A stretch of DNA of 64,000 nucleotides from an uncultured Verrucomicrobiae bacterium (lineage in GTDB: Bacteria; Chlamydiota; Chlamydiia; Chlamydiales; Rhabdochlamydiaceae), in contig OY970364.1 in assembly GCA_963718565.1 (NCBI GenBank), positions 128,001 through 192,000 of the forward strand. Direction: 5' to 3'. The notes under the pieces are model-generated. The model saw only the letters and a program-made list of their open reading frames with translations. It was not told the origin of the DNA and made no database searches. Of the stretch, positions 4,349-33,960 are shown in pieces; the first letter of the stretch is position 1; each line of letters opens with the position of its first letter. Position numbers and translations under genes: made by a program.

Positions 4349-5830
4349 TTATTGTGTGTTTCCGATCGTAATCCCAATGTAGGTGTTCGATTCCAAAGTA
4401 GGGGATGCCAAAAGTACGCTAGGCCACAAGGGCTCATCATAAGCATAGGTATAGATTCCTCCGCAGGCATGAAGCGCTGCAGAGTAGAGATCATACCAAG
4501 GTCCGGAAGATTTGCCAAGAACGCTCAAGTTCGGATTAACTTGATAATAGGGCATAAAGCTGGAGAGAGTAGAAAGAGTGGAAGCGTTGATCAGGCTGGT
4601 TGTGGGTACGATTCCTGCGATGATAGCTTCCTCAAAGGCTTTGCTGACCTGGATGCCGTCCGATGCACTTGTCGCTGATGAGACGAGCGATAAGCCGGAA
4701 AGGATATTAAAGCTTGTCGAGGAAGTGTATGGGGGGCCGAGAGTGGGAGGTCCGAAGGTGACCTGGTTGGGTCCTGAAGTGAACAGAATGGAATTATTGC
4801 TCTGGACGGTGCCTGTGTAAGTCGTCCCACCGGGGATCTCGATAGAAAGAGGATTCCTGCGATAGAAGCTTATTGGTCCATACCAAATGTCTGAGAGATA
4901 GCTGTATCCGTAAGCAGACAAATTGTCGAGATAGTTGACGTCGAAATATCCACCTGCCATCCCTTTACCTGTCGAGATGACTCGATAGGTTGTCGAACCG
5001 CTTCCTGCGAGTAACTTCTGCCATTGCGCAGATTCTGCGGCAGGAGGAACTTCCTGAAAGCAGGATTTAACATAAGACAGAATGGTGTTTCGATTTTGCG
5101 TGAGGCCGCAGTTGCTTGCAGATCCTGGACCTGGGGTGGAGAGGTAGATATAGAGGGGGATCGAGAAAAAGCTGACGGCGGTAGCATCGACGTTGACGTT
5201 TGGCGACGTCGAGACATAAGCCCCTTCGACCTGATCCCAAATAATCGCATAATTGTTGTAAGGATCATTGGGATCGTTGAAGGCGGGATCGGCGATTCCC
5301 TCGCTATTGACGGGAATGTTCAACTTGCTGTTCAGAGAGATGATGACAAGAAAACTATCGGTTTCAGGAAGATAGAACTTATATCCGTCTGTTGTCGTAG
5401 GAAAGTAGGTGAGAGGATACGAATAAGTGGATCCGTTGTCGCCGATGGACACCTGATGGAGAGAGCCAACTCCGGACATGTTGAAGTCCACAAAGACCTG
5501 GGGACCGCCAATGGGCACTCTCCCTTGGACGAGAATATAGACTTGAGAAGGGTCAACACCACTGTTGTTGACGATATTGAAGGGAAGCATTCCTGACATC
5601 GAGCCAGGGTTTGAAGGGTTAGGAGGGGGTGTGGCGGAAGGAGCAGGGGGAAGAGAAGGCAGAGGGGTGAGGGATCCGCTTGAGCTAAAGCCTGCCTGGG
5701 CGAGGACTCTATTTTCTTCTAGCAGGATTTCGTCATAAACGACTTCAATGCGGTCCAGGGAAAATGTGTCAGGCGCTGCTTGGAGAAAACTTAAATAGCC
5801 GCAGGAGAGCATCATCCAAAGCTTTTTCAT
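4349..5830 (-). CDS. Secreted glycoside hydrolase family 64 (beta-1,3-glucanase-like) protein with Pro/Ser linker
   Basis: Start MKKLW after GAGGAG; signal peptide; PPAPSATPPP linker; GH64-like LPFNIVNNSG, VYILVQG, DPAFNDPNDP..WDQVE, FFSIP, YTYAYDE. Confidence 0.72.
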   Translation of the reverse strand: MKKLWMMLSCGYLSFLQAAPDTFSLDRIEVVYDEILLEENRVLAQAGFSSSGSLTPLPSLPPAPSATPPPNPSNPGSMSGMLPFNIVNNSGVDPSQVYILVQGRVPIGGPQVFVDFNMSGVGSLHQVSIGDNGSTYSYPLTYFPTTTDGYKFYLPETDSFLVIISLNSKLNIPVNSEGIADPAFNDPNDPYNNYAIIWDQVEGAYVSTSPNVNVDATAVSFFSIPLYIYLSTPGPGSASNCGLTQNRNTILSYVKSCFQEVPPAAESAQWQKLLAGSGSTTYRVISTGKGMAGGYFDVNYLDNLSAYGYSYLSDIWYGPISFYRRNPLSIEIPGGTTYTGTVQSNNSILFTSGPNQVTFGPPTLGPPYTSSTSFNILSGLSLVSSATSASDGIQVSKAFEEAIIAGIVPTTSLINASTLSTLSSFMPYYQVNPNLSVLGKSSGPWYDLYSAALHACGGIYTYAYDEPLWPSVLLASPTLESNTYIGITIGNTQ

Positions 5831-5847
5831 AAAGATCTCCTCAAAAT

Positions 5848-6666
5848 TTAGAAACAATAACCCAGATTCAGATCTACACCCCAGTAGTTGTAGGTGTTTC
5901 CTGGAAGGCCAAGTGGAATGCCCGTTGTCGTTTTTGCGGTAGTATGCCCATCGGTCCAATATTCGTAGAAGGGCTTCAAGATCAGATGGAGCCGTCTATT
6001 TTTGGTCAAAGAGAAATCAAATGGAACATCCACATGGTAGTTGTTAAGAGTGTTTGTGATCTTCCATCGCACTCCACTGATGGGGTGGATCGTCACTGTT
6101 GGAAACGCCTGCGGCATCCACGCGAAGCATGCGCCTAATGTAAACCAGGAGCCAAAGGAGTAATTGGTGATAAAGCCCAGAGGAAAATAAAATTCGTTAT
6201 AGTTAAACCGAATAGAAGAGCTGTCTTTGGGTTTGAATTTTTGTCCGACGTGGCGGATCCCTAGGCCGGAGTAAAGGGTGAGCAGCCAATGGTCTTGCTT
6301 GAAACCGAAAGTATAGCCCATGCGCTCTTGGCCATCGACAAAAATGAGCCAGCGCTTTCCTTCTGAGCCGTGAGTGTCGCCTTCTTTCCAGGAGACCAAA
6401 GCAGCTCCGTAGAAGCGATTGGCAGGCCGATATTCATAGATGCCCTGAGCGCCTCCAAGATTCCCTCTGAATCCTGGATTGCCGTGGGGCTTCAAGTTCA
6501 CATGTGTGTAATCGCCGCCAATTTCCAGGCGGGATTTATATTCTTTGAGTTGTTGGGACGGTTCAGGAGGTGGAGAAGATTCAGGCTGATCGGCCAGGAG
6601 AAATGCTGTAGGTAAAATCACCGAAAGGGACAAAGCAAAGAGTGTCGAGGCGAATTGCGTTGCCAT
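5848..6666 (-). CDS. Outer-membrane beta-barrel protein
   Basis: Signal peptide (MATQF...), alternating aromatic/Gly strands, C-terminal LNLGYCF beta-signal. Confidence 0.7.
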   Translation of the reverse strand: MATQFASTLFALSLSVILPTAFLLADQPESSPPPEPSQQLKEYKSRLEIGGDYTHVNLKPHGNPGFRGNLGGAQGIYEYRPANRFYGAALVSWKEGDTHGSEGKRWLIFVDGQERMGYTFGFKQDHWLLTLYSGLGIRHVGQKFKPKDSSSIRFNYNEFYFPLGFITNYSFGSWFTLGACFAWMPQAFPTVTIHPISGVRWKITNTLNNYHVDVPFDFSLTKNRRLHLILKPFYEYWTDGHTTAKTTTGIPLGLPGNTYNYWGVDLNLGYCF

Positions 6667-6781
6667 AATTTTTTCCTGTTTTTTGTCATTACAATCATTC
6701 ATACATTAAATCCAGATTTTTCTTCAAGAATGGAATGTAAGCAAAAAATTACATGGCGTAGGAATTAAAGAATTTTTTGAA

Positions 6782-6810
6782 TTGCCGGAAAGAGGTAACT
6801 TCTGTATAAT
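6782..6810 (+). promoter_or_regulatory. Sigma70/sigma66-type promoter upstream of the His leader and ABC operon
   Basis: TTGCCG-17 bp-TATAAT. Confidence 0.6.
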
Positions 6811-6853
6811 TGGTTTCAGTTAAAGGGTAATCTTTGCCCTTAAGAGAGATAAT

Positions 6854-6988: not shown

Positions 6989-7118
6989 TATTTTTTTGTT
7001 CGTTGTTTCTTGGCGACGAATGAATTTTCGGTTTTTTTGTTAATTTACTGGGTTATTTTGGTGAGTTAAATTTTGTAAATTTTTATTTTTTATCAATTTT
7101 AAAACAAGGATCTGCGTT

Positions 7119-8090: not shown

Positions 8091-8094
8091 ATTT

Positions 8095-9521: not shown

Positions 9522-11105
9522 ATGTCAACAGCAATAAACGCTCAAAATACTTATCTTTGTCCAGCTCAAGTTAAAGAAAATATTTATCAATTTCTTTTTC
9601 GACCGATGCAGTGTGATACGACTCTGATGAAGGTAGCAGCTGTCGCAACGCTTGCTTTATTAACTGTTGCTACCTTAGGTCTATGGCTTATCCCATTTGC
9701 AATTTTTGGGACATTGAGCGGCAGGGAGATCAACGACACACTAAAAGGTTTAGATCCAAAAGTTCTCGAAATTTTACAAAAAACTCCTGCTTTTAAAAAC
9801 TATGCGATTCAATTAGCTCCGGAATCTCCCTATCAAGGGGCGGTGCTTGGATCTGGAAACTTAAGGCCTGCTAACTTTTTCTTTTCCAAATTATTCGAGG
9901 GATCAGGAATCACGACAACTCTTCCTAGAAGTAGAAGATTATTTGCTTTTGAGCAAGACCAGGCAACTGTCCGCAATTATATCGCTTCTCAAAATCCTAA
10001 TCGTGTTGTGAATGTCACAGCCAGAGGATTTGCAGGAGATGTGAGATTGCCTAATGGCTCAACGTTTTGTTGTAACTTTACTGACATTTATGGCGATAAG
10101 ACGTATCAAATTTCCCTTGGGGAGATTCAACAAACACTCGAAAGCCAAAAGATTTTCACAGCACCTGAACTTCCTCTACTCTTTTACCGTGGCTTAAAAT
10201 TAGCGATGCAACTAGATGGGATTGTCACGCTCCCCGTGACTAAGCTGAAAGATGCACCATCCCCCAATGTCCAACGTTTTTTACAACAGGTCGAAATGCA
10301 TGCGCAACACTACGGCTTTAGTTCCCTTGAGCAGTTTCATTGGCTAAAAGAGAGAACTTTCTATCAAGTTGGAGCTCTTGTTGTAAAGACCGAGAATTAC
10401 CGCACATTTGTCGATGCGGATATGAAAATAAAAGAGAGAGGCGTGGGAGAAAATGATGCGATTAATCTGATTAACGCCTGTGGAATTAGACCTTCAGCAT
10501 CACCATCGGATCTTGATAGTAATGCAAAAATCATCAAAGAGATGTTTACCACAGTCCTTGCCTCTGCAGGATCAGGAGATTTAGTTGTTCCCGCCATCGG
10601 AATGGGAGTATGGGGAGGAGATCCTGATGTCTATTGGCGCAGCTTCTTAGAAGCTGTTGCACTTCGTGGAAGCTCTCTTAGCCGCATTTTTGTGAACCCA
10701 TGCCACCAATCCACTCAAAGCGCTGTTTTTACAGGAGCCAAAGGCGAAGAGTTTCAAAGGCTTTTAAATGAGTACATACGCACTTGCCAGGATCCAGGGG
10801 CCATTGAAAACCTACGCAAAATCGTCAATCTTTACGACACCAGGCAGGATGTGGTGCAGTTAGCTGTCAATTTGAAGAAAAACAGCCCTCCGAATCATAA
10901 GGTTTCGCTCATTAACGCTTCCGACCCAGATGTGACTTTAGGTTATCATGTAGGTGAATACGTCAATAATCCCCATATCGGGCATACGACAGAGGAAAAC
11001 TATACGGCAATGGGAACAAATGGCCTTTGTTTTGAAGGGATTACTAACGTCCACCAAGGCCACAGCAATCCCTTGCATAATCCAAGGATTATCCAGGTCG
11101 CATAA
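9522..11105 (+). CDS. Hypothetical protein with N-terminal hydrophobic hairpin and a possible macrodomain-like C-terminus; candidate secreted effector
   Basis: Hydrophobic stretch at about aa 38-63; LVVPAIGMGVWGG loop; SLINASDP and TTEE. Confidence 0.5.
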   Translation: MSTAINAQNTYLCPAQVKENIYQFLFRPMQCDTTLMKVAAVATLALLTVATLGLWLIPFAIFGTLSGREINDTLKGLDPKVLEILQKTPAFKNYAIQLAPESPYQGAVLGSGNLRPANFFFSKLFEGSGITTTLPRSRRLFAFEQDQATVRNYIASQNPNRVVNVTARGFAGDVRLPNGSTFCCNFTDIYGDKTYQISLGEIQQTLESQKIFTAPELPLLFYRGLKLAMQLDGIVTLPVTKLKDAPSPNVQRFLQQVEMHAQHYGFSSLEQFHWLKERTFYQVGALVVKTENYRTFVDADMKIKERGVGENDAINLINACGIRPSASPSDLDSNAKIIKEMFTTVLASAGSGDLVVPAIGMGVWGGDPDVYWRSFLEAVALRGSSLSRIFVNPCHQSTQSAVFTGAKGEEFQRLLNEYIRTCQDPGAIENLRKIVNLYDTRQDVVQLAVNLKKNSPPNHKVSLINASDPDVTLGYHVGEYVNNPHIGHTTEENYTAMGTNGLCFEGITNVHQGHSNPLHNPRIIQVA

Positions 11106-11208
11106 TAACGACGATCGTGAATCACTATTGGCCTTAGCTGTTCGTTTTTTTCTGTCGCAAAATTTTTCACGACAGTATAATGGCCCATCATTTTTGGGGA
11201 AGGATCTC

Positions 11209-13938
11209 GTGTCTGTCGGACAATCAGAACAAGCTGTTCCCGCTGAATTAAGTCTTTCGCCAGAAGGCCAAGTCTATTTCAACCAGGACAGAGAGCCAAG
11301 CGAGCGCCTGACACAAGCTGAGTACGTCAAAATCCATGAGCTTTTCACTCAAGATGCGGCGTGGGCCCTTTTACATCTGGGTCTTCGCGATTTAGGACCT
11401 TCGCTGCCTCCCAGCTTTTTCTTCTGGCAGGCGTTTTCACGCCAGTTTATCATGCGCCTCTGCAGGCTTCAGAGCACTGAAAATCAGGGGAAAATCATTG
11501 TCGATGAGCCGAAGGGCGACGAACTTGCTGCGCTCATCGATCGAGCCCCTTTCATGAGGGGAGCAGAATATCTCTCGAAAGAAATACTGGTTGCAATTTG
11601 GCGGCAGATGGAAACGGTCCTGGATGTGGAGCTGCGCTCATTTCCAAGGTCTTTACAGGAGTATTTAGGTCAGTTTGGCCCCCACTGGAATCAAGTGGGC
11701 CGCGTCTGTTTTCATCTGGCAGAAAATAAAAATAACGAAAAGAAGCCTTTTGCATTTTTGGCTACATTTACAACGCTTAATGTCCACGGGGCGCTTCCTC
11801 AGCATTTGCCTTTGAAACGGGCATTGCAGGAATCCGCAGCGGAAAAAACATCATCTGCCCTTCTTTCTCTCCTCATTCCTGTACAAAAAGCAGCAGCCTT
11901 AAGTCCATTTATTAAAACTCTTGTCGAAACAGGGGCGATTTTTGAGGCCGCCGCATGGACGGCTCATGAGGCGCACCGCTTTTTGCAGGATATCCCTTCT
12001 CTAGAGGCAAGCGGCGTTGTCGTCCGTGTGCCGAACTGGTGGAATCCTCAAAGGCCTCCGAGATTGAAGGCCGAGGTCCATTTGGGAGGGCGTCCCGATT
12101 CTATGCTGGGGTTGAGCAGCCTGCTCGAATTCGATGTTCGGCTGGCCCATGCCAATGGCGAACATCTGACCCGAGAGGAATGGCTTAGCTTGCAGCAAGG
12201 AGAGGGCAGGCTTGTCAAGATCAAAGAACAATGGGTGGAAATTGACCGGGATAAACTCAATGCACTCCTTTCCCATTGGGACCAGCTGAAAAAGGCTTCC
12301 CGCGATGGACTGACAATGGCTGAAGGTTTGCGCCTTTTGGCTGGGATTGAACCATCATCTGTGATCGACAGCAAACAAACAGAATCTTCTCCTGATTGGT
12401 TTCAGGTCACATCAGGAGGTTGGTTGAAGACTGTTTTGGAGAAGTTGAGAGATCCGCAAAGCTGCCAGGAAAAGGCAGTGGAAGAGGCATTAAAAAAAGG
12501 CCTTCGGGGAACTCTTCGCTCCTATCAGCAAAAAGGGGTTCAGTGGCTCTGGACGCTTTACCAGTTGCGGTTGGGCGGATGCCTTGCAGATGACATGGGG
12601 CTTGGAAAAACCGTTCAAGTCCTTTCGCTCCTGTTAGCGATCAAAGAAACTCGCCTTTCAGGAAAGCCCCATTTGCTCATTGTCCCTGCTTCTTTATTGG
12701 GCAATTGGCAGGCCGAATCGACCCGTTTTACTCCAGCGTTAAACCTCTTTGTCGCACACAGCTCAGCGCCTCAGTGCGATGCCGGATTAGAGGGGATCGA
12801 CCTGGTGATCACCACATATGGCTTTGTCTATCGGACTCAATGGCTAAAGGAAGCGAAATGGGATCTCGTCATTTTGGATGAAGCTCAGGCCATCAAAAAC
12901 CCGAATGCAAAACAGACGCTTGCCATAAAGGAACTGATTGCAGATGCGCGCCTAGCGCTCACTGGAACACCGGTCGAGAACCGGCTTGGCGATTTATGGT
13001 CGCTATTTGATTTTATTTCTCCGGGCTTATTGGGATCGGCCAAGACATTTGGCATGTACGCCAAACAGGGAGGCAAAGACGGGATAGAGCGGTCTCAGTT
13101 TATTGCTGCTTTACGCAAACTGACTCAGCCTTATGTCCTCAGACGACTGAAAACCGATAAAAGCATCATCTCCGACTTGCCAGCTAAAACTGAAATGAAA
13201 ACATACTGCCATTTAAGCGCTGAACAAATCCGTTTATATGCTCATGCAATTGAAGAGCTGGCTAAAAACTTGGAGACTACCGAAGGGATGCAGAGGCGGG
13301 GAATCGTCCTGTCTTCCCTGATGCGCCTTAAGCAAATTTGCAATCACCCTGCCCAGTGGCTCGGGTTTGGGGAGTTTGATGAAGAGGGAAGCGGAAAGTG
13401 GGTCCGCTTGCGGGAGATTTGTGAAGAGATCGCAGAAAAACAGGAAAAAGTTCTGGTCTTTACGCAGTTTAAGGAAATCATCAATCCTCTTTTCTCGTTT
13501 TTAACAGGTTTATTCGGGAGAGAAGGTTTGGTGCTTCATGGAGATATCGCCGTGTCGAAACGGGGGTCTTTGGTCGAACGTTTTCAACAAGAGCTTGGGC
13601 CGCCTTTCTTTCTCCTTTCTCTCAAGGCAGGAGGAACAGGGCTGAATCTCACCAAGGCATCCCACGTCATCCATTTCGATCGTTGGTGGAACCCGGCTGT
13701 TGAAAACCAGGCCACTGATCGCGCTTATAGGATTGGACAGAAGCGCCCTGTGCTGGTGCATCAATTTATCTGCTGCGGCACAGTTGAAGAAAAAATCGAC
13801 GCATTGATCGAGTCGAAGAAAAATTTATCAAAAGAATTACTCGATGGGGAGGGGGAGATTTCGCTCACCGAATTATCGAATGAACAGGTGTTGCAAATGG
13901 TCTCTCTCGACATCAAACGCGCAATGGGGGAAGGATAA
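11209..13938 (+). CDS. SNF2-family helicase/ATPase
   Basis: LADDMGLGKT, DEAQ, LTGTPVEN, SLKAGGTGLNL, QATDRAYRIGQ; probable GTG start after GGAAGGA. Confidence 0.93.
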   Translation: MSVGQSEQAVPAELSLSPEGQVYFNQDREPSERLTQAEYVKIHELFTQDAAWALLHLGLRDLGPSLPPSFFFWQAFSRQFIMRLCRLQSTENQGKIIVDEPKGDELAALIDRAPFMRGAEYLSKEILVAIWRQMETVLDVELRSFPRSLQEYLGQFGPHWNQVGRVCFHLAENKNNEKKPFAFLATFTTLNVHGALPQHLPLKRALQESAAEKTSSALLSLLIPVQKAAALSPFIKTLVETGAIFEAAAWTAHEAHRFLQDIPSLEASGVVVRVPNWWNPQRPPRLKAEVHLGGRPDSMLGLSSLLEFDVRLAHANGEHLTREEWLSLQQGEGRLVKIKEQWVEIDRDKLNALLSHWDQLKKASRDGLTMAEGLRLLAGIEPSSVIDSKQTESSPDWFQVTSGGWLKTVLEKLRDPQSCQEKAVEEALKKGLRGTLRSYQQKGVQWLWTLYQLRLGGCLADDMGLGKTVQVLSLLLAIKETRLSGKPHLLIVPASLLGNWQAESTRFTPALNLFVAHSSAPQCDAGLEGIDLVITTYGFVYRTQWLKEAKWDLVILDEAQAIKNPNAKQTLAIKELIADARLALTGTPVENRLGDLWSLFDFISPGLLGSAKTFGMYAKQGGKDGIERSQFIAALRKLTQPYVLRRLKTDKSIISDLPAKTEMKTYCHLSAEQIRLYAHAIEELAKNLETTEGMQRRGIVLSSLMRLKQICNHPAQWLGFGEFDEEGSGKWVRLREICEEIAEKQEKVLVFTQFKEIINPLFSFLTGLFGREGLVLHGDIAVSKRGSLVERFQQELGPPFFLLSLKAGGTGLNLTKASHVIHFDRWWNPAVENQATDRAYRIGQKRPVLVHQFICCGTVEEKIDALIESKKNLSKELLDGEGEISLTELSNEQVLQMVSLDIKRAMGEG

Positions 13939-13939
13939 C

Positions 13940-14710
13940 ATGGGGTACTGGGGGCAATATATATCGGTCGCTGAAAGAAAAGCACGAGCTGCCAAGCATT
14001 TAAAAGCAGCTCAAAAGAAAGGCAAGGCTTTAAATCCCATCATTGTCAAGGGACGCCAGATCGCCCATACTTTTTGGGGAAGAGCCTGGTGCGACAATCT
14101 GGAAAATTACAGTGACTATGAAAACCGCTTGCCGCGAGGGAGGACCTATGTCCGCAACGGTGCCGTGATCGACCTCCAGGTTTCCAAGGGGAAGATCCAC
14201 GCGAAAGTGATGGGTTCTTATCTCTATGAAGTCGATATTGAAATTGAGGAAATGAATCCTTTGAAATGGAAAAGCCTGGTCAAGGCATGCTCTGGAAAAA
14301 TCGATTCTCTGATCGAGCTTTTGCAGGGAAAATTTTCGGACGCCGTCATGGCAATGATCATCGATCCGAATAATGGCCTCTTTCCCCATCCAAACGAGAT
14401 TTCGATGGAATGCAGCTGTCCTGACGGAGTAGGCATGTGCAAACACACCGCAGCGGTCCTTTATGGCATCGGCGCCTGTCTGGATCTGCAACCCGAATGG
14501 CTTTTTAAGTTGCGCCATGTCGATCACCTTGAGCTGATCGTGCAGGCTAGCGCAAATGGGATCATTGCTCTTTCCAAACCTAGCGCAGATGGCTTGGAAG
14601 AAAGCGATCTTTCCTCCCTATTTGGCATCGAAATGGCTGAGACCTCATCATCTAAGCAAGAGACTGTCCAGCCCATCCCTAAACAAAGAAGAAATCGAAA
14701 AAACTCATGA
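13940..14710 (+). CDS. SWIM zinc-finger protein, partner of the SNF2 helicase
   Basis: CSCPD...CKH SWIM motif; RLPRGRTYVRNG; starts 1 nt after the SNF2 stop. Confidence 0.9.
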   Translation: MGYWGQYISVAERKARAAKHLKAAQKKGKALNPIIVKGRQIAHTFWGRAWCDNLENYSDYENRLPRGRTYVRNGAVIDLQVSKGKIHAKVMGSYLYEVDIEIEEMNPLKWKSLVKACSGKIDSLIELLQGKFSDAVMAMIIDPNNGLFPHPNEISMECSCPDGVGMCKHTAAVLYGIGACLDLQPEWLFKLRHVDHLELIVQASANGIIALSKPSADGLEESDLSSLFGIEMAETSSSKQETVQPIPKQRRNRKNS

Positions 14711-14913
14711 CATTGACAGAATCTGCACAGCGGGTTCGGTTGACAGCGGCGAAGATATATACCGCGCTCCGTCAGGTTTTGTGAATTTGGACTGGCTGCG
14801 GCTTTGCCCAATCAATCCTCCCAGTCTTCAAATCATCAACATTACGAAATTATTTTTAACAAGAATTGCTGAATTCTGGCACAATCCTTTAATCACAACA
14901 ATTTTGTTATTGC

Positions 14914-15083
14914 TAACCTGAGTTTTGGGTTCATTTTATAGTAGATTGTCGTAGGCTTCGAGGCAATTTTTGCAAATTTTGGCGCGTTCAATAGTTGGAG
15001 GCACCTATGGACGCGCCAAAATTTGCAAGAAGTGTCCGAAAGATACGGCAAGGTACTATGAAAGGAACCCAAAACTCAGGTTA
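14914..15083. repeat. 170-bp palindromic MITE-like element
   Basis: Perfect 19-bp terminal IR TAACCTGAGTTTTGGGTTC / GAACCCAAAACTCAGGTTA; inner stem TTGCAAATTTTGGCGCGT / ACGCGCCAAAATTTGCAA. Confidence 0.85.
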
Positions 15084-15108
15084 CTAGTGAATCGCGGAGG
15101 AATCAACT

Positions 15109-16846
15109 ATGAAAATCAAATTTATTACCCTCGCTTTAGTAACTGCTACAGTCAACCTTTTTGGCGATCAATCTTCTCCTTATCGATGCAAAATGTCGGG
15201 AAACGAACTAGAGGCAGATATCATAGTAATAGGTGGTGGAGCGGCAGGTTGCGTATTGATGAGCGAGCTATCAGAGAATGGTCACTTTTCAGTATTAGGA
15301 ATAGAGGGGGGGCTAAATTTAACAAATGATCCAGCAATAGAGGCTGTGGGTCTCCCAGCATTCCTATTGGCTGGGACAGGAAAGTACAAGTATTTTTGGC
15401 CAGGATGGAATCAAACCGTACCCATGCCAGGGCTCAATGGACGAACAAGTGATTGGACAACAGGAATGGTGTTGGGTGGTGGCTCATCGATTAACGGATT
15501 ATACTATGGTCGTGGCTCGAACGCCGTGTACTCGCGTTGGGAAGGAGTTTCTGGCAGCAGCAATTGGAGTCTGGACAATATTCTGGCAACCTTCAATGCT
15601 CTTGAGAACTACCAAGGATTGACAATCACACCAGGGGCACGAGGAGACAACGGTCCTGTCAATGTGCTACAGACACCTACGGTGTCGCAGATAACATCGG
15701 ACGTACTATTGCCCGCGTCACAGGCAGCGTTTCCTGGAATTCCAACTGTGGTGGACTATAATGATCCGAGTGTGGAGAATTGCATAGACCCTCGTGCTCA
15801 GTGGTTTATTGATCCTACAGGTACCAAACGAGTGAGTAGCGCGACAGCATATTTAAATAGCACGGTGATGACGCCAGAAGGTCAAGGAGTTAATGGACAC
15901 AAACTGTTTATGCTCTTCGATTCGGTAGCTGTGAAAATAATATTTGACAAACATGGGCGTGCCAAAAAAGTAAAATATATACAGGATGGTCAACTCTTCG
16001 AAGCACGAGCTCGGAAAGCCGTTGTTTTGGCGAGTGGCATCAACAGTAGCAAGTTGCTACAGCTTTCGGGCATAGGTCCGTCGCAAGCGCTAAAGAATGC
16101 AGGGATCAAGCCCGTTTTCATCAATGAGAACGTAGGAAAACATCTCCAAAACCATCCGCTCATCTTCATTACGTTGCTAGCAGATCCCGCAGCTAAGTGG
16201 TATACCACCTGGAGCACCGTATGCATTTACTATCAATAATGTCTACTTGCCAGTAGTGGGCGGTAGTGCAAGCGACCCACGAATGCTACAGATTTTGTTC
16301 GAATACATACCGGCTACCACACAGACACCTCCGCTAGTAGCCATTGGATTTGAGCTTTTGAACCCAGTGAGTGAGGGTAGTGTCACACATCCAAAGTGAC
16401 AACTCATTTCAGATAGCCGCAGCGGACGACGGCTTTTACCAAAATCCTGTAGACCTGGAGAATATGAAGAGTGCCGTCCAGGTCTATATTCGCGATCTGC
16501 TAGAGCAACTAGCCATCATTGACCCGCCTTACTATCAACCCATTCTAGGAGACCCGATCAATCGCAGTCATCCTTTCAGGTTATAACGACGCAGCGGTTG
16601 AGGCAGTACGTGAAAAATAACAGCAATCTTTCACTGGATGTACACCACTTTACATCGCACTGTAAAATGGCTCCTCTGAACGCCGGAGGTGTGGTAGATG
16701 GCAACACACGTGTTTATGGCACAAAGAACGTTTTTGTAGCGGACGACTCCATCTGTCCAGTGATTCCCGATATCAATACGGCAGCATCAGCTATGATGAT
16801 CGGATTACGGAGTAGCGAAATTCTGAAACGTGTCTTGAGCAAATGA
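15109..16846 (+). pseudogene. Secreted GMC (choline dehydrogenase-like) oxidoreductase, about 3 frameshifts
   Basis: Signal peptide; IVIGGGAAG; LGGGSSING; LLQLSGIGP; VGKHLQNHP; C-terminal HHFTSHCKM..GVVD..RVYG..VADDS in other frames. Confidence 0.85.
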
Positions 16847-16869: not shown

Positions 16870-17511
16870 ATGAAAAAAAATATTCTGCTACTTTTAATGT
16901 CACTCTTATTTTTCATGGCAGCTGATGCACAAGCTCAAGAACGGTGTGCTGAAGACAAGCTGCTGTGTTGATAGGACGAATTTCTATGCTAAGATTTTTG
17001 GCGGTGCTAATTTCTTGCAAAACACTACAATCGAAGGAAACAAATCCACATATCAGACAGGGTATATTTTTGCCGGTTCGTTGGGTTATTGTTGGCGTGT
17101 TATGGCTTGCGTTTGGAAGCTGAATATGCTTTTAGAAGAAATGCTATAAGAAAAATCCATTTCTTTACAGAAGGTTCTTCCAAGCATGGACATTTCCAAA
17201 CTTCCTCGTATATGGCCAACCTATTATGGGATTTGCCTTTATCTTCGTGGGGGTGCGCATTTTGGAATATCCAACCTTTTATTGGAGCTGGCATAGGCTA
17301 TGATTTCCAACAAATGCATTCCTCAAATTCTCGTATTGTTTTTAACCAAAAGTGGAACCATTTTTCTTGGCAAGCGATGGCTGGGTTAGCCTATCCGATC
17401 TTCCGCAATACAGAGATTACTTTGGAATACAAATTCCATCAGGGAGGCTGTCATTTCTATAACCACTCCGTCGGAGTTGGGCTCGTATATAAATTTGGCT
17501 TCATAAGGTAA
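16870..17511 (+). pseudogene. Small outer-membrane beta-barrel (Opa/OmpW-like), 2 frameshifts
   Basis: MKKNILLLL signal; FYAKIFGGANF, GLRLEAEYAFR, QPFIGAGIGY, VGLVYKF split over three reading segments. Confidence 0.75.
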
Positions 17512-21932: not shown

Positions 21933-23419
21933 GGTAGTGTAACATTGTTTCTGTAAATTCAATTTTTCAAGAAAGTGTTTTGATAATTGAAAAAAAAGTT
22001 TGAGATCACATTCTCTTAAGTTTAGACAAACAAACAAAAGGAGAGGTTATGATCTCAAACAGCACATATGCCCCTGTAATCAACGCATTAGTGGAAGAAC
22101 TCGGACAACAAGGCTTACACGGCCTCAGCGAACTCTTGAGCAGGCTCTTCAATGAATTAATGAAGACCGAACGAGAGCAGGTTCTTCAAGCTGGTCCATA
22201 TGAGCGGACAGAGGCTAGAAAAGGTTATGCTAATGGTTTTAAAGATAAAACGGTACAGACTCGTTTTGGAAAATTAGAACTCCAGGTTCCACAAACTCGA
22301 GAGATTGCATTCTACCCACAGTGCTTAGAGAAGGGAGAGCGATCAGAAAGGGCATTAAAATTGGCAATTGCAGAAATGTATGTTCAGGGTGTTTCAACGC
22401 GGCGAATAGCTCCAATTGCAAAAGAGCTGTGCGGCTTTGATTTGAGTTCAACCCAAGTTTCTCGGGTTGCAATGATTCTCGATGAGGAGCTTGAAAAATT
22501 CCGCAGGAGAAATTTAGGTCACATCGTTTATCTTTATCTCGATGCCGATTATCAAAAGGTGAGACACGATGGACACGTCAGAGACATTGCAGTACTAAAA
22601 GCTGTTGGAGTGAACAAAGATGGATTTCGAGAAGTGCTTGGCATTTCATGCAGTTTATCTGAGGCCGAAGTGCATTGGAGGACATTCCTGGAAGACTTAC
22701 TCTCTCGAGGATTAAGAGGAGTAGAAATGGTGATTAGCGATGATCACTCTGGGCTAAAAGCTGCACTAAGGGCAGTGCTTCCATCGGTTCCTTGGCAGCG
22801 CTGTCTTTTTCATCTTGCTCAAAACGCTCAAAGCTATGTCCCAAACACGGCAATGCGAGGAGAAATTGCACAAGCGGTACGAGATGTTTATCAAGCCTTG
22901 AATCAACAAGAGGCTGAAAAACGAGTTAAGGAAACAGTGCAAAGATATGAAAAAAGAGCGCCCAAATTTTGCAATTGGTTTGAAATCAATGCAATTGAGG
23001 CAATGACATTTTATCATCGGCCAAGAAGGCACTGGAAACAGATAAGGACTGTTAATATTGTTGAAAGGCTTAATGGAGAGATTAAGCGGCGAACAAGAGT
23101 AGCAAGATTATTTCCCAATGAAGCGTCTTGTGAAAGATTGGTCACTGCCGTGGTATCTGAGATACACGATGAATGGATAAGCGGAAAGAGGTATTTGACG
23201 TTAGAATAAAATATTGAGGAAAACAACGCTAACACCGATGGAACACTTTTTGTTTAGGGGTGAATTATCTGGCATAAAAAAGTGTCAGATTCGAAAAATT
23301 TTTCCTCAAAAGCAAAGTAAAAAGCCGAAGCGTCTCTGACGCGAGAGGCCGTTTTTATAGTAAGAAATTGACCTAAGTGAAGAAGATTTCAGATTTTACA
23401 GAAAAATTGTTGCTTGATC
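21933..23419 (+). mobile_element. IS256-family insertion sequence, apparently intact
   Basis: 8-bp TSD TTTTTCCA at 21925-21932 and 23420-23427; imperfect TIRs sharing AACA.T.TTTCTGTAAA. Confidence 0.88.
22049..23209 (+). CDS. IS256-family transposase
   Basis: EMYVQGVSTR, YLYLDA, VISDDH.GL, WQRC..H, ERLNGEIKRRT. Confidence 0.95.
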   Translation: MISNSTYAPVINALVEELGQQGLHGLSELLSRLFNELMKTEREQVLQAGPYERTEARKGYANGFKDKTVQTRFGKLELQVPQTREIAFYPQCLEKGERSERALKLAIAEMYVQGVSTRRIAPIAKELCGFDLSSTQVSRVAMILDEELEKFRRRNLGHIVYLYLDADYQKVRHDGHVRDIAVLKAVGVNKDGFREVLGISCSLSEAEVHWRTFLEDLLSRGLRGVEMVISDDHSGLKAALRAVLPSVPWQRCLFHLAQNAQSYVPNTAMRGEIAQAVRDVYQALNQQEAEKRVKETVQRYEKRAPKFCNWFEINAIEAMTFYHRPRRHWKQIRTVNIVERLNGEIKRRTRVARLFPNEASCERLVTAVVSEIHDEWISGKRYLTLE

Positions 23420-23468
23420 TTTTTCCAAACTGCAGTCCAGGAAAATCGCTGACCAGAATTGGATACGG

Positions 23469-27863: not shown

Positions 27864-28154
27864 ATGGCCAAAACAAAAAAACAATATTCACCGGAGTTCA
27901 AGCTCAAAGTAGTACTAGAAGTGCTCAAGGGTGAGAAGACAGCAACCCAACTCGCTGGCGAGTTGGGGGTACATCCCGTAGTTCTGTCGGAATGGAAAAA
28001 ACAATTTATTGAGGCAGGACCTCAGATTTTTGTAAAGACCAGGAGGTCTAGGGATACAGCAGAGGGCAAAGAAAAGGCCGAACTGTTCGAACAGATTGGA
28101 AGACTCAAGATGGAGAACGAGTGGCTTAAAAAAAAATTGGGGGCTTTGACCTGA
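27864..28154 (+). CDS. IS3 transposase OrfA (HTH)
   Basis: YSPEFKLKVVLE...IGRLKMENEWLKKK. Confidence 0.9.
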   Translation: MAKTKKQYSPEFKLKVVLEVLKGEKTATQLAGELGVHPVVLSEWKKQFIEAGPQIFVKTRRSRDTAEGKEKAELFEQIGRLKMENEWLKKKLGALT

Positions 28155-28240
28155 ATGAAAAACGGGCACTCATTGAACCTCACGATATCAAATTTTCCCA
28201 AAGAGCACAGTGTAAGCTCCTCGGAGTATGTCGATCTGGA

Positions 28241-28975
28241 TTGTACTACGAGCCACAGCAGCCTGGTGAAGAAGACTTGCGACTCATGTGCGCAATCGAC
28301 AAACAGTACCTCGAAACCCCCTATTATGGGAGGCGTCGAATGACAGTGGCAATGAGAAAACTAGGATTTGTCGTGGGACAGAAAAAAGTGCGAACAGCGA
28401 TGCAGGTGATGGGGATAGAGGCGATCTATCCAAAGCCGAACCTGAGCGCTGGGAATAAACAGCATAAAAAGTTCCCGTATTTACTGAGGGGCCTAATTGT
28501 TGATCGTTCCGATCAAGCTTGGGCAGCTGACATCACTTACATTCCATTAACAAAAGGATTCGGATATCTGTTTGCAATCATAGACTGGTATAGTCGGTAC
28601 GTGATTGAGTGGGAGCTCTCAAATCTGCTTGATACAGAATTTTGCATGGAGGCATTGCAAAGGAGTCTTTGGCAAAAAAGACCTGAGATATTTAATACTG
28701 ATCAAGGTGTGCAGTTTACGAGTAGTCAATTCACCGGGAAACTTGAAGAGAATGGGATTAAAATCAGTATGGACGGGAAGGGTCGAGCTCTTGATAACGT
28801 GTTTATTGAGAGGCTGTGGAGAAGCGTGAAGTATGAAGAAATTTACCCGAAAGGATACGAGAGCATGAAAGAGGTTCGATCGGGGCTGAAAAAGTACTTT
28901 GAGTTTTACAACAACAAGCGACCCCATCAGGGTCTCGATTATCGAACCCCAGCAGAGGTGTATTATGGGACATAA
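28241..28975 (+). CDS. IS3 transposase OrfB (rve DDE), normally read by -1 frameshift from OrfA
   Basis: WAADITYI, NTDQGVQF, DNVFIERLWRSVKYE, YNNKRPHQGL. Confidence 0.92.
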   Translation: MYYEPQQPGEEDLRLMCAIDKQYLETPYYGRRRMTVAMRKLGFVVGQKKVRTAMQVMGIEAIYPKPNLSAGNKQHKKFPYLLRGLIVDRSDQAWAADITYIPLTKGFGYLFAIIDWYSRYVIEWELSNLLDTEFCMEALQRSLWQKRPEIFNTDQGVQFTSSQFTGKLEENGIKISMDGKGRALDNVFIERLWRSVKYEEIYPKGYESMKEVRSGLKKYFEFYNNKRPHQGLDYRTPAEVYYGT

Positions 28976-31441
28976 GAAAAAGAAAGGGGCTTTGCCCCTT
29001 GAACCCCAGCAAAGGGCTGACTGCCCTTTGCAAACCCGTGGGCTTTTGTATAGGGCCCTGGGAGTTAGATTAAACAACAGAGGAGATTAGCTTAGATTTC
29101 TCGATTTTTGGTCTAGACAAAAGGAACCACTTTACATTCTCTCTAAAATCGGTACTCCAAGATCAGCATAGTCATACACCTGTGCTTCTTTTTTATGCGT
29201 ATATAGACGATGCAGTCTACCAACGTACTGAGCGATAGTTCCTTTCCATGAAATGGGCATGGTAAGAAATAAAGTGTCCAGGCGTGCATTATCAAAACCC
29301 TCACCGACAAACTTGCCAGTTGCAAGCAGCACTCTAGGCTCATTTGCAGGAATAGCAGCTAAACGGCTAGTCACTTGGGCAATTTCCTTTGAACTCATCC
29401 CACCGCGAAGCACTACCAGATGTTGAATATGGGGAGAAAGTCGCTCGAGCAAGCCGTCGAGATGTTCATTTCGTTCCGTCAGCACTAGCGGCGACCTACC
29501 GCTTTGAACTGCATAAATGACTTCATTACAAATTAGCTGGTTGCGATCTTCATCTCGGATGAGCTCATCGTATAAATCATTAAATTGAAGGCGAGTATCT
29601 TCGTTTGCCGGCTTGATAGGAGAAAATGCGGTTGGCCTAACAAATACGGTATGCTCAAACGGGCGTAACTCGGCTGCAGCCTTGGCGTCTACTCGGTAGC
29701 GCACGGGGCCGCATCTCATGAGAATGATTGGATGATGGCCATCTTTTCGTGTCAGAGTGGCTGTGAGTCCTGTAATAAATTTGGGCTTAGATTGGCGGGC
29801 CACTTGCTCAAAACTAAAAGCTGGCAAGTGATGGCATTCATCGACAATTAAATGGCCATATTGAGAGACAATATCATCAACGACTCCCTTGCGCGCAAGG
29901 CTTTGAATCACAGCTACATCAATCAGTCCTGTAGGCTTTCTCTTCCCTCCACCAATACGACCTATGGCATTTTTCGGCAGTTCAAGGAATGAGGAGAGTC
30001 TTTCTATCCATTGCTCTTGCAATTGCGTTCGATGCACAAGGATCAGCGTATTTACCTTCCGTTTCGAGATGAGCCATGCGCCAATAACGGTTTTGCCAAA
30101 TGCAGTCGTGGCTGACAGAACGCCAAAGTTTGTTTTAACCATTGCTGCTGCAGCAGCCTTCTGCTCAGGACGTAATTCGCCCAGGAATTTTGCTGTAAGA
30201 GAAGTCCCTGCTTGCAGCTCATCTCGAATAACCAGCCTGATTTTTAGGTCAGAGAGTAGGAGACAAATATCTTCAAGGCAACCTCGTGGCAATCCTATAT
30301 GATCAGAGTGATCTGCAACACATGAAATCATTCTTGGTTTTTCATGAGTTGGAAGTCTCATTGCTTGAGCTTTGTAAAATTCGGGGTTTGGAAATGCTGC
30401 AAGGCGCATTAACCGATTTCTTAACCACGGAGATAGTCCATTTTTGGGCACATAGATCTCATTTCCAACAGCGATTTCCAAACTTTCTGGCAGGTCAATA
30501 TTGGCAGGAACTGTTTTGTTGTGAGTAAATGGCCTATTCCATGGAGTAATGTCGTCCTCCTCGCTCACCGTGAGATGCATTCCAACGATGCGGCCCTTCC
30601 TTTCAGCAAGGGAGACAATCGTTTCGGCTTCCTGACGAGAAATCTTTCGTAATCCTGACAGGAATGCCCATTGATCCTCATAGGCAATTAAATCCTCATT
30701 CACAAATACGCTATTTCCAAGATCTCGGGCCTTTTTTTGCAAAGGGAGTGCGATGAGATTCCCAAATCCACCTTGAGGCAGCGTATCCTGATTTGGAAAG
30801 AATCGATCATAAGAATCCAGCCCGACATCTGGCCGATGCTCCATCGTTTCAGTGAGGATGTGACATCCTAGTTTTCGTGCGAGTATTGCTGGGATTGCGG
30901 TCGTAAAAAATAGCCAGACGTGAGCGCCCTTGCCAGAGCGAGAACGTTCCAGTGCTGCGGGTAAATTCAGCTGATGACAGGTTTTGAGAAAGGCACGCGC
31001 GTCCTCTTCCCAGCTGGACTTATCAAAATCAGCCGCCAGGAAGAAACAGGTTTCATTCAATAACATTGGATAAAGGCCCATGACAAAGTCTTTCCCAAAA
31101 TCATCTTGGCCGGAAAGATGCCATTTCACCACGTCATCAATCACGGGTAGGAATCTGCGATGTCTGCATTCAGAGCATTTGATTTTTGGCTTTTCGCAAA
31201 TTCCTCGTACCCATTCATTGCCACATGCAGGTGAATAGCCTGATTTCCCTGTCTTTTTACTTTCAAATCGCCGAGGATATAGATCTTCGCGGCCTCGGAA
31301 AAGGGACCGGAATAGGGCGATTTTGGTACAGGAGGGTGATTTTTGGGTAAGCTGGAGTTTCTCTTCCATTTAATGGCCAATAATTTTCAAGGAAAGTATA
31401 GAGGGTTTTGCTAGGCCTTACAAGTTCTTAAATATGGTTTC

Positions 31442-33100
31442 CTAATTCATGATTTGTAAAATGGCCGATGCTGCATTAAACCCGGATGTATAAGCGGCAT
31501 CTGCGGTGCCGTCTTTGAGTTGATTAATAGCCTCTCCGGCGAAAAACAACCTATTATCTATTGGTAATGTCAAATTCACAATATCGTTAAAACTAGTATT
31601 CAGCGAAGGGTAGGAATAACTGCCGAGGGAATAGGGGTCTTGCCCCCATCTTGTGATTTGGATCTGTAAGGGATCGGGAGCTGATGGATAAATTAAACGC
31701 AATTGGGTCATTACATTATTTACAATTTCAGCATCCGACAATTGTTCTTCGTCCCAAGCAAAATCTCCAATAGTAAAAACGAGTAAAATTGGCTTATTCA
31801 CAAATTCGCCAAAATTAAATATCATATAATAATTGTCTAATGAATTGGCAGTATAGGGAAGGGTAATTGTTTGATTCGCAGCCCAAAAAGCGCTAGGGAA
31901 TTGAAGGTATACTTTATCTAGCAAGCCATTCCCTAGATTTTGTATTGCCGTCCGCTGGGGTGCCGGCAGGCTTGGGATGAATTGGATCGTATTCGCCTGT
32001 AATACCCCGATTGGCACGGTGACTACTACATAATTTGCACTAAATGCTCTACCGTCAGTTGTGTTAATCAATATATTGTCATTTGTATAATTAATCTTAT
32101 TTACAACAGAATTTAGATTGATGTTTATTGAGTCAATGTCGAAAAGTAAATCGAGAAAGTTTGTGTATCCAATTGAAGGGATTGCATCGTGTCCTAGATT
32201 CAGATAGCTGGGGCCGACAAGGGAAGAAACGTCATAAGTATTACCGGCATACCAACTACTGTACAAGATATTATAAGCATAGGCTATATAAATATTATCG
32301 GGGTTTGGGGGTATGACGGTGTTGACAAAACAATTAACTGCATCTTGAAAACTACCGCAATAGGCAAATGTTCGAGATAGTAACGCTGTGCTTAATAGTG
32401 GGTAAAAATTAAAAAGATCAGTAATCGTACTAGGATCAACTGCTGTACCGTTATTATATATCCCAATTCCATTGGGGGGTATGACGGGTGTGGGTATCAA
32501 TGGAATGCCCATATCCTGTGCGATTGTGGCCAGCACATTATTGTCGACGTCGTGCAGCCAAGTGGCGCCTAAATCGGTATATGCGCCATCCATCGTCGTC
32601 GTTTGGATTCTGCCACCTGTTCTATTTCGAGCCTCCAGTATTAAGACATTCTTATTATTTGCTTGCAACACGGATGCGGCCTCTAATCCCGAAATGCCCG
32701 CCCCAATGACGATCACATCATAGGTGGGCACAGGCGTGACAGTCACATGGATCGGAACCTGCACCGCATCCAGCGTCGGTTTAGCCCACACCTTGAGCGC
32801 TGTCGAGATATTTTGAGCCGAAGTGGGCTGCAATTGCAATGTAACCGTAGCGGACTCTCCAGGCCCTAGCGAATTGCCAAGGGTGCTCGATAAGACGGAC
32901 ACACCTGTTGGAAATTGGCTTTGATTGACGGGAATGACAATGGCCCCCGATGAAATATTCGTTACGGTATAAGTGGCGCTCGAAATCGAATATTCCGTAA
33001 CCGTCGACGGAAACGGCGTCGTTGCAGTGATAGAAATGAGATGCGCAAATATTTTGAGCGGAAAAAGCAAGAGAAGGATCCCCAAGAATTTTCTTTTCAC
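31442..33100 (-). CDS. Secreted flavin monoamine/polyamine oxidase with an N-terminal Ig-like domain
   Basis: Signal peptide; about 100-aa Thr/Ser-rich beta domain; VIGAGISGL, EARNRTGGR, WGQDPYSLGSYS, FFAGEA. Confidence 0.88.
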   Translation of the reverse strand: MKRKFLGILLLLFPLKIFAHLISITATTPFPSTVTEYSISSATYTVTNISSGAIVIPVNQSQFPTGVSVLSSTLGNSLGPGESATVTLQLQPTSAQNISTALKVWAKPTLDAVQVPIHVTVTPVPTYDVIVIGAGISGLEAASVLQANNKNVLILEARNRTGGRIQTTTMDGAYTDLGATWLHDVDNNVLATIAQDMGIPLIPTPVIPPNGIGIYNNGTAVDPSTITDLFNFYPLLSTALLSRTFAYCGSFQDAVNCFVNTVIPPNPDNIYIAYAYNILYSSWYAGNTYDVSSLVGPSYLNLGHDAIPSIGYTNFLDLLFDIDSININLNSVVNKINYTNDNILINTTDGRAFSANYVVVTVPIGVLQANTIQFIPSLPAPQRTAIQNLGNGLLDKVYLQFPSAFWAANQTITLPYTANSLDNYYMIFNFGEFVNKPILLVFTIGDFAWDEEQLSDAEIVNNVMTQLRLIYPSAPDPLQIQITRWGQDPYSLGSYSYPSLNTSFNDIVNLTLPIDNRLFFAGEAINQLKDGTADAAYTSGFNAASAILQIMN

Positions 33101-33117
33101 ACGATTCTCCTTTCTCC

Positions 33118-33960
33118 TTAAAACAGATGGATGTAACAGAAATATAGATCATCCGAACTCAATGAACCGGTATCGAGGTGATGGGGATAAGCGGAACCTC
33201 GCTTGCCGAACGATGTCTTGCCCGAGTACACATAATGATACCCCACCGAAATCCGTTCCCGTTGAAAACTCGGTCTTTTTCCCAAATTGAAAGCGGCGCT
33301 TAGGCCTAAGCCTGCCTGGCAGGCGAAGCTGTTGTTCGTATGGGAATGAAAGGGGCCCACAGGAGGGTAACCGGAACTGTCGACAGCTGTTTCCTTATAA
33401 TCTTCCGCTCTGTTCCAGGCAGCGCCTACGCCAACGTCGATAAATGGGGAAATGTAGCGAAGCAGCCAAGTGAATTTAATTTCGGCAATCGCGCGCGCGT
33501 TGTTGCTTTTATACTTGTAATTGTAAAGCGTGCTGCTAGGATCGCCCTGAGGAGTCTCAATCACCCTGCCTTTGAAATGGTAATTTGGGCTGAAATACCC
33601 TCCGACACCCAACGCAATAGCGGGTTTCCACTTTGCCCCCGCAAACTCATAGCCGCCATTCACACTCGCCGTTACGGAAACTGGGCGTTTGGTTTTGAGA
33701 GGGTAGGCGTCAGTGATTTTAACGCCGCTTTCATAGGAGATCTTTGGCTTTCTTTTCCCTAACTTTGCCCAGCTGGCCCCAACCTCTACGCCTAGATAAA
33801 TATGCCCAGTATGAACATGCTCAGGAGTAGAAACGGTAGGGGATTTGCTTGATCCTGAAGAGGCCATAGATGGTTTGATAAGAACCCATGGCTCCGACCG
33901 GGCCTGGGATACGGAGGAAAAGAACAACATAAAACCGATGACGCGTGTAATGGCCCGCAT
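33118..33960 (-). CDS. Outer-membrane beta-barrel protein (Opa/OmpW-like)
   Basis: Signal peptide; IYLGVEVGASW, SPFIDVGVGAAWN, C-terminal Phe. Confidence 0.7.
   Translation of the reverse strand: MRAITRVIGFMLFFSSVSQARSEPWVLIKPSMASSGSSKSPTVSTPEHVHTGHIYLGVEVGASWAKLGKRKPKISYESGVKITDAYPLKTKRPVSVTASVNGGYEFAGAKWKPAIALGVGGYFSPNYHFKGRVIETPQGDPSSTLYNYKYKSNNARAIAEIKFTWLLRYISPFIDVGVGAAWNRAEDYKETAVDSSGYPPVGPFHSHTNNSFACQAGLGLSAAFNLGKRPSFQRERISVGYHYVYSGKTSFGKRGSAYPHHLDTGSLSSDDLYFCYIHLF

Follow-up and report, generated by a model that had tools for sequence, protein, structure and literature searches.

Small outer-membrane barrels encoded beside exported proteins in a rhabdochlamydial genome: recurrent gene pairing and a candidate N-terminal tag and socket

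Why do genes for small outer-membrane barrels stand directly beside genes for exported enzymes in the genome of an uncultured member of the Rhabdochlamydiaceae? The question is raised by a stretch of 64,000 nucleotides, here called the window (positions 128001-192000 of contig OY970364.1, assembly GCA_963718565.1), from a host genome of 2.28 Mb in a single contig with 43.6% G+C. Three such pairs are present. Pair 1 consists of barrel 1 (5848-6666, minus strand, 272 residues) and a GH64-family beta-1,3-glucanase homologue of 493 residues (4349-5830, minus strand). Pair 2 consists of a GMC oxidoreductase gene (15109-16846, plus strand) and the barrel 2 gene (16870-17511, plus strand), both of which are pseudogenes. 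Pair 3 consists of barrel 3 (33118-33960, minus strand, 280 residues) and a flavin amine oxidase of 552 residues (31442-33100, minus strand). An earlier sequence-only reading had taken the three as one recurrent, possibly undescribed two-gene system in which a dedicated barrel anchors or translocates variable enzymatic cargo. The geometry that it described was reproduced, with co-oriented partners in all three pairs and gaps of 17 bp (pair 1), 23 bp (pair 2) and 17 bp (pair 3), and the three enzyme identities hold on Pfam or profile evidence. All support reported here is computational; by it the observation was partly confirmed and the interpretation partly supported. Pair 3 is the strong case. 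Distant bacteria have its unit of barrel plus N-terminal tag as well, joined there to quite different cargo, and this recurrence hints that proteins may be pinned to the cell surface in a manner not yet described.

The amine oxidase of pair 3 matches PF01593 (Amino_oxidase) with 234.1 bits (5e-69) and NAD_binding_8 at residues 131-189. Ahead of these regions it carries a signal peptide and an immunoglobulin (Ig)-like tag, a putative docking domain at residues 20-129 (32714-33043, minus strand). The tag is conserved over 108 residues; it opens with HLISI at the residue that follows the signal peptide, and a WAKP motif within it is invariant. Its likeness to the HYDIN/ASH families is sub-threshold. 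Against choice-of-anchor D (NF012200), five tags or tagged proteins scored 18.3-28 bits with a cut-off of 45, so the tag is not a member of that family. PF25852 is listed as precomputed for two tagged proteins; it was absent from the Pfam copy scanned and is therefore left unnamed.

In a large protein collection, 26 homologues of barrel 3 were found at 44-65% identity. A barrel-first scan with one genome per species yielded seven loci, whose hosts are labelled as a Verrucomicrobiae metagenome-assembled genome (MAG), two Gammaproteobacteria MAGs, Legionella wadsworthii, two Coxiellaceae MAGs and a bog MAG. At six of the seven, a co-oriented gene next to the barrel encodes a match to the initial 120-250 residues of the oxidase, and the remainder of the protein differs. 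Amine oxidase cargo was seen at L028, where the orthologue is 66% identical and adjoins a barrel 3 orthologue, and in broken form at L033. The tag is followed by an unassigned domain of ~450 residues at L029 and L032, and by InlB-type repeats and BNR/sortilin propellers at L031 and L034; the cargo gene of L034 lies upstream of the barrel. At L030 (3048-6693), a barrel 3 relative stands after an 811-residue protein with a weak match to the inverse-autotransporter beta-domain.

The same association was approached from the side of the tag. A profile search among 1.84 billion proteins returned 531 representatives at E ≤ 1e-3. Among the best 150 of the 531, 77 have one full-length tag that starts at residue 60 or earlier, in proteins of 135-1225 residues; 52 are giant multi-repeat proteins and 21 are of other kinds. 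The cargo in 54 aligned tag members comprises BNR propellers (14 proteins), Flg_new_2 repeats (13), amine oxidase (3) and lactonase-type propellers (3), further Big_2 or TIG domains, and many regions with no Pfam match. Six of 199 scored Legionellales genomes carry the tag at E ≤ 1e-8, and all five new loci have a barrel 3-family gene directly upstream, co-oriented, with a gap of -14 to +28 bp. At two Legionellales loci both partners have diverged (E ~1e-9) and are still paired, the cargo being an ice-binding-like domain. A barrel 3 profile matched general 8-stranded barrels in 164 of 198 Legionellales genomes. Scores of at least 305 bits were reached in only four of the 198, which are exactly the four strong-tag genomes, with the two hits at adjacent coordinates; the next best score was 99 bits. 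A tag scan of metagenomes gave seven loci: four with the barrel directly upstream, one weak non-member, one duplicate of L029, and L080. Over the 17 distinct tagged loci, which span this window, Legionellales, Coxiellaceae MAGs, other MAGs and metagenomes, the barrel is adjacent in 16, the remaining one (L080) being undecidable. Pair 3 shows conserved adjacency, phyletic co-occurrence and variable cargo behind a constant tag.

Among 40 chlamydial relatives, barrel 3 was found in none and the oxidase search gave only weak flavin-site matches, so the pair looks acquired by this chlamydia. Adjacency has a possible explanation that involves no anchoring: the partners may be co-inherited or co-regulated envelope genes whose products make no contact, linked by shared ancestry and common transfer only. 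Many of the loci do come from related genomes, and the barrel 2 orthologues described below are 72-97% identical across families, so that their linkage could stem from one recent transfer. However, pair 3 has been kept across Legionellales, other Gammaproteobacteria MAGs, MAGs labelled as Planctomycetota-Verrucomicrobiota-Chlamydiota (PVC) and this chlamydia while its cargo was swapped. The adjacency of pair 1 survives inversions, and a complex model of pair 3 passes its controls. Linkage with no contact is thus considered very unlikely.

The complex model was built from barrel 3 residues 46-280 (15-row alignment) and the 110 residues of the tag (54-row alignment). The complex score was 0.78 (0.79, 0.78 and 0.78 in the runs), compared with 0.26 for the best of three controls. 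The runs had at least 98% of their contacts in common, and the predicted local distance difference test (pLDDT) value of the partner was 91. In the calibration of the score, 116 of 157 solved complexes attained this mark, as did 2 of 215 mismatched pairs, counts that are only rough because our own alignments were used. A sequence search of the PDB gave no relative of either partner (best E-values 0.019 and 0.39); as neither has a relative of solved structure, a model pass drawn from a memorised complex is unlikely. The barrel 3 residues at the predicted interface are 76-84, 133-146, 195-201 and 257-258, all of which belong to the four long connections that join strands 1-2, 3-4, 5-6 and 7-8. 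On the side of the tag, the contacts involve the first two residues, residues 31-41 and the WAKP stretch 84-97. Prediction of a complex between barrel and cargo N-domain, which the sequence-only reading had named as a check, therefore came out in favor of the pairing for pair 3. The model supports binding of the tag to barrel 3; that the two really bind, on which membrane side they do so and how the cargo is exported are inferred.

The side of the membrane matters because the barrel could instead bind the tag from the periplasm, as a tether that would hold the enzyme against the outer membrane's inner face or load it into outer-membrane vesicles. Only a Sec signal is evident in the cargo and the barrels cannot translocate, both of which fit such a tether, and the accessible part of one report describes how a periplasmic peroxidase is recognised through its N-terminal region by an OmpW-type barrel, which loads it into vesicles (PMC13592688). 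However, the predicted interface lies on the four long connections and not on the short turns. The short turns are also the least conserved part of barrel 3, with a conservation of 0.51 compared with 0.68 for the long loops and 0.715 for the strands. Furthermore, the cargo of the tag includes BNR propellers, InlB-type repeats and ice-binding-like domains, which are typical of surface proteins. We regard a periplasmic tether as unlikely.

Pair 1 probably follows a logic similar to that of pair 3, within the Rhabdochlamydiaceae. First scans of its 493-residue protein were blank in Pfam (E ≤ 0.1), NCBIfam and PDB sequences, and the resulting view that it is not GH64 was overturned by a profile search and by its homologues. 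These carry PF16483, which also has a precomputed assignment to the window protein. One homologue (P0029, 70% identity) scored 75.1 bits on PF16483 (8.1e-21; cut-off 27 bits), and a profile of 20 family members retrieved solved GH64 glucanases from the PDB at 4.1e-19. On this sequence evidence the protein is assigned to the GH64 family. Its signal peptide is followed by a tag of ~30 residues with the motif xTFSxDRLxxFYDxFLxEEKxxL, placed at residues ~19-50 (5681-5776, minus strand) by an alignment of tagged proteins, and next by a Pro-rich stretch. The extra N-terminal modules noticed earlier on two of the cargo proteins are thus present, as tag plus Pro-rich linker on the GH64 protein and as the Ig-like domain on the oxidase.

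Orthologues of barrel 1 with 47-62% identity occur in most Rhabdochlamydiaceae sampled, and some match was found in 25 of 40 relatives. With enlarged flanks, a GH64 homologue adjoins 12 of 15 orthologous barrels, and all such neighbors open with a signal peptide and the tag, after which comes a Pro-rich stretch. Elsewhere the genes of pair 1 are mostly arranged head-to-head, sometimes tail-to-tail or in tandem. In two genomes the tagged neighbor is not a GH64 protein and is instead a protein of 754-765 residues that has beta-helix and GH141 insertion domains. When 41 genomes were searched for the tag itself, 20 matches turned up in 16 of them, and 13 of these 20 tag genes, the window's own included, adjoin a barrel 1 orthologue. 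The expectation that barrel homologues would be flanked by signal-peptide proteins sharing an N-terminal module was therefore borne out for pair 1 (13 of 20 tagged genes) as for pair 3 (16 of 17 loci). Conservation among the connections of barrel 1 is highest in the fourth and the fifth of the odd-numbered ones (0.80 and 0.74, compared with 0.67 for the strands).

Some further observations concern relatives of pair 1. At L083 (5852-6580), L084 (5913-6548) and L085 (3826-4500), a conserved protein of 211-242 residues with a hydrophobic N-terminus is encoded tail-to-tail after barrel-less tagged proteins of 568 residues and may be a different partner of these. The host genome holds two paralogues of barrel 1. 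One is flanked by murE and a methylase gene and lacks an exported partner. The other (L002, 974000-986000 of the contig) has a stop/start overlap with the preceding gene for a signal-peptide YncE/lactonase-like beta-propeller, a pair that was not found in the other loci retrieved. The stretch 3803-7553 of L002 also covers a second further pair, in which a 186-residue exported protein is followed by a barrel of ~257 residues; this pair is 81-83% conserved in G009, where it stands beside that genome's GMC-barrel pair.

The suggestion of a single recurrent module did not survive comparison of the barrels. Pairwise BLASTP among barrels 1-3 gave best E-values of 1.5, 0.92 and 0.032, none of them significant. 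With this lack of similarity and their differing strand number, the pairs are not one repeated module, and one barrel family repeated three times is ruled out by BLASTP and fold; the three families are unrelated. The AlphaFold2 model of barrel 1 has ~10 strands (pLDDT 84.7, predicted template modeling score 0.79). In Foldseek its best match was OpcA (2vdf, TM-score on target 0.79), followed by Pla and OmpT, all of them 10-stranded. Barrel 1 scored a weak 18.4 bits on Pfam OMP_b-brl (PF13505; cut-off 28.7), and with this score and ~10 strands it is no member of PF13505. The model of barrel 3 has eight long strands (pLDDT 79.5), with Foldseek matches to the OmpA transmembrane domain, NspA, OprG, Ail, OmpX and OmpW. 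PF13505 is precomputed in 5 of 26 barrel 3 homologues, and the window copy had no PF13505 match in the Pfam scan. Barrel 2 belongs to PF13505: its C-terminal piece scored 32.7 bits and the intact orthologue L061:4633-5271 scored 44.9 bits. Barrel 1 is an OpcA/omptin-like, 10-stranded barrel, and barrels 2 and 3 are 8-stranded and OmpA/OmpX-like.

These assignments bear on the possibility that the barrel is itself the translocator, in the manner of a split autotransporter or a type XI secretion system (T11SS). A dedicated barrel does stand beside each cargo gene, and the C-terminal piece of barrel 2 scored 21.7 bits (cut-off 16) on NCBIfam autotrans_barl (TIGR01414), a match to the last 80 of 432 positions only. 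However, barrel 3 has 8 strands and barrel 1 ~10, not 12 to 16, and the cargo includes folded cofactor enzymes of at least 55 kDa. A Pfam scan at E ≤ 0.1 of the window barrels and the intact orthologue gave no match to DUF560/SlipAM (PF04575), POTRA or Autotransporter, and the window barrels had no Pfam match to IAT_beta or PorP_SprF. Translocation by the barrel, one of the two roles first offered for it, is thus extremely improbable; 8- and 10-stranded barrels argue for anchoring instead, because a barrel of this size cannot pass a folded 55-kDa flavoenzyme.

The reading that we prefer is an anchor for pair 3, and probably for pair 1, in which dedicated barrels hold tagged secreted proteins and do not translocate them; we judge the chances of its being right and of its being wrong to be about equal. 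The partner would be exported by Sec, with a docking module directly after the signal peptide, namely the 108-residue Ig-like domain in pair 3 and the motif of ~30 residues plus Pro-rich linker in pair 1. The cargo behind this module would be interchangeable. The small barrel would be too narrow for protein passage and would offer its long conserved loops as a binding site; cargo that has crossed by a different route, most likely type II secretion, would in this way be kept on the outside of the outer membrane. Such a surface socket is in keeping with the unchanging tag, the exchangeable cargo, the strict co-occurrence and the docking modelled on the long loops. Three secretin-family genes are present in the host genome, and type II secretion would be the obvious candidate route across the outer membrane. 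In spirit, the idea of an undescribed two-gene system is upheld for pair 3 and, probably, also for pair 1; it falls as regards a single system and translocation. A broader proposal is more tentative and falls somewhat short of an even chance: small 8- and 10-stranded barrels may serve as private sockets for N-terminal tags and form an anchoring family that is independent of type IX secretion (T9SS), has swappable cargo, and has moved between Legionellales, other Gammaproteobacteria and chlamydiae.

A number of points weigh against the anchor, in addition to the rough calibration of the complex score. Binding is a prediction of the model, which was made for pair 3 alone of the three pairs. In the canonical topology of 8-stranded barrels the long connections point outward, and the extracellular side assigned here rests on that topology. 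Conservation at the interface does not significantly exceed that of the other residues, either in the barrel (p=0.20) or in the tag (p=0.29), and the window's tag lacks a Cys pair that is nearly invariant in the family. The route across the outer membrane is only inferred. A signal peptide had been ascribed to every protein; such N-termini are seen, judged by eye, and count among the unconfirmed points. A Sec-exported flavin adenine dinucleotide enzyme needs its flavin outside the cytoplasm. Among the loci, the barrel 3 relative of L030 has no tagged neighbor, and L080 has housekeeping genes and no barrel upstream of the tag gene, on a contig that ends inside the cargo gene. For pair 1, the mostly divergent arrangement means that there is no operon. 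Four of its 20 tags lie away from a barrel (a GH141-like gene 8 kb off and the three orthologous 568-residue proteins, which are of no assigned type), and three of the 20 stand at contig edges or in fragments where adjacency is undecidable. Finally, related genomes are non-independent samples in all adjacency counts.

Pair 2 is of a different nature. In the window its GMC gene matches GMC_oxred_N (5.6e-28) and GMC_oxred_C (1.1e-15) of Pfam in different frames; the first frame is broken after codon 376 and open only to 16239, and the reading frame of barrel 2 carries stops. Comparison with three intact orthologues (86-93% nucleotide identity) located five single-base insertions, at 16195, 16388, 16564 and 16605 in the GMC gene and at 16957 in barrel 2, and one deletion at 17097 in barrel 2. 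Real decay is favored over assembly error because six indels fall within 2.4 kb while neighboring long genes are intact. Barrel 2 orthologues with 72-97% identity were found in 8 of 40 relatives, two of these genomes belonging to other families. In each of the eight, the gene directly upstream is a co-oriented GMC gene (86-93% identity). Intact copies encode a GMC protein of 580-602 residues with a signal-peptide-like start and a barrel of 213-243 residues; one of the eight copies, that of G010, is likewise broken. The flanks differ between genomes and the identity is far above that of vertically inherited genes, which indicates recent horizontal spread as a unit. These comparisons point to a two-gene cassette that spread horizontally among chlamydiae and decayed in the window. 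As for pair 2 as an export module, the adjacency of its genes stands, but the GMC protein has no extra N-terminal module and the window copy is a pair of pseudogenes.

Metagenome contigs from many runs of 15 studies, on soil, freshwater, peat and caves, contain fragments of the GMC-barrel cassette that amount to no more than 0.20 of the words sampled; the window's own version was in none of those metagenome runs, and the fragments are no evidence of habitat. Two further observations were made. At L063 (G020:C8, 2670-7867) in one relative, the genes after a GMC-barrel pair are, in order, that of a second signal-peptide amine oxidase (484 residues), which has no Ig-like tag, and that of a further exported protein. 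In the window, positions 14893-15100, which immediately precede the GMC gene, encode a translated peptide nearly identical to one in the spacer of L002 (4375-4540).

Pair 2 is where metabolic coupling would be most plausible, with the barrel acting as a substrate-specific channel that feeds the periplasmic enzyme encoded beside it. The pair retains one cargo type in 8 of 8 genomes. Moreover, distant signal-peptide GMC genes (29-39% identity) adjoin putative barrels of other families in three of three cases (DUF6666, an IAT_beta-like pair of open reading frames, and a weak OMP_b-brl match), and the fold of barrel 3 resembles OmpW and OprG. However, the barrel clade of pair 3 goes with unrelated cargo, some of it without an enzyme domain, and the conserved element there is the tag and not the catalytic domain. 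To our knowledge, 8- and 10-stranded barrels provide no open pore for oligosaccharides, which also counts against such coupling. As an explanation of the pairing it is quite unlikely.

The three pairs lie in mosaic surroundings with remnants of mobile elements (IS66, Mutator, IS3 and DDE transposases) at 20210-20903, 22049-23209, 27864-28975 and 34663-35495. A TOTE conflict-system primase-helicase gene (29132-31369) is located directly downstream of the amine oxidase, and a complete type I restriction system occupies 43299-48501. With these elements around the pairs, the region is regarded as a variable, defence-rich island. At 9522-14710, a 527-residue open reading frame overlaps the start of a 994-residue SNF2/DUF3670 helicase frame and is followed by a 288-residue frame that matched nothing in Pfam at E ≤ 1e-5. 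Together they may make up a helicase locus that is frameshifted or consists of several parts.

Few cases are known of how proteins secreted by type II or other Sec-dependent routes stay on the Gram-negative surface. If the anchor is real, the problem of surface retention would have a new solution in the form of a portable N-terminal tag and its private barrel. It would aid the prediction of surface proteomes in Legionellales and environmental chlamydiae, which are genetically hard to study, and could be used as a simple two-part tool for surface display. It would also mean that barrels of the unremarkable OmpA/OmpX-like sort can be dedicated to one protein ligand, the product of an adjacent gene.

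A literature search, with most subscription journals outside its coverage, returned no description of pairs of N-terminal tag and barrel. Several known systems share single features with the pairs described here. In the T11SS (Slam), according to the part of the source available, an outer-membrane DUF560 protein of ~481 residues translocates cargo that has a constant C-terminal 8-stranded barrel domain and a variable N-terminal effector (PMC12282271). The likeness lies in an outer-membrane protein that is genomically paired with a constant targeting domain on a variable effector. In contrast, the barrels here have 213-280 residues and no DUF560, and the conserved module is N-terminal. A TbpBBD-like C-terminal 8-stranded barrel domain was absent from the Pfam scans of the cargo, and a DUF560 search of the host genome found none, with the controls silent too. 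Type V autotransporters have a barrel of 12 or more strands with a linked passenger, whereas barrel and cargo are separate genes here and the barrels have 8 or ~10 strands. The resemblance to T11SS or a split autotransporter that was drawn at first is therefore lost, as the pairs lack DUF560, a 12-stranded barrel and a C-terminal barrel on the cargo.

Other comparisons concern the barrel and its ligand. The OmpW of Pseudomonas putida, as far as the source could be consulted, sorts the DypB peroxidase into vesicles, and so offers a small 8-stranded barrel that recognises the N-terminal region of an exported oxidoreductase; in that part of the source the contact is periplasmic, and neither a transferable conserved domain nor gene pairing is described (PMC13592688). 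The adhesin barrels OmpX, Ail, NspA and OpcA, which were among the structural matches, are of the same fold class and have extended loops or strands. They bind protein or glycan ligands outside the cell. Their ligands are host molecules, whereas the ligand predicted here is the product of the neighboring gene. Adhesins of the LapA type have an N-terminal retention module that sits in the TolC-like pore LapE; they use type I secretion, have no Sec signal, and the module plugs the export pore. An N-terminal module thus holds a surface protein at an outer-membrane barrel there as well.

[quoted passage not shown] There, in the portion of the source that was available, a conserved domain on variable cargo is held non-covalently at the surface by a dedicated cognate barrel, as in PG1035-PorP and SprB-SprF (PMC9143113). 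The PorP/SprF family and the type B CTD gave no Pfam or NCBIfam match on the window barrels or cargo, and SprA_N (PF14349) had no match in the host genome, with control genomes silent too. The partner genes of type B cargo are reportedly adjacent in Flavobacterium. Compared with that arrangement, the tag described here is N-terminal and not C-terminal, the barrels are OmpA/OmpX/OpcA-like with 8 or 10 strands, and the hosts are chlamydiae and Legionellales.

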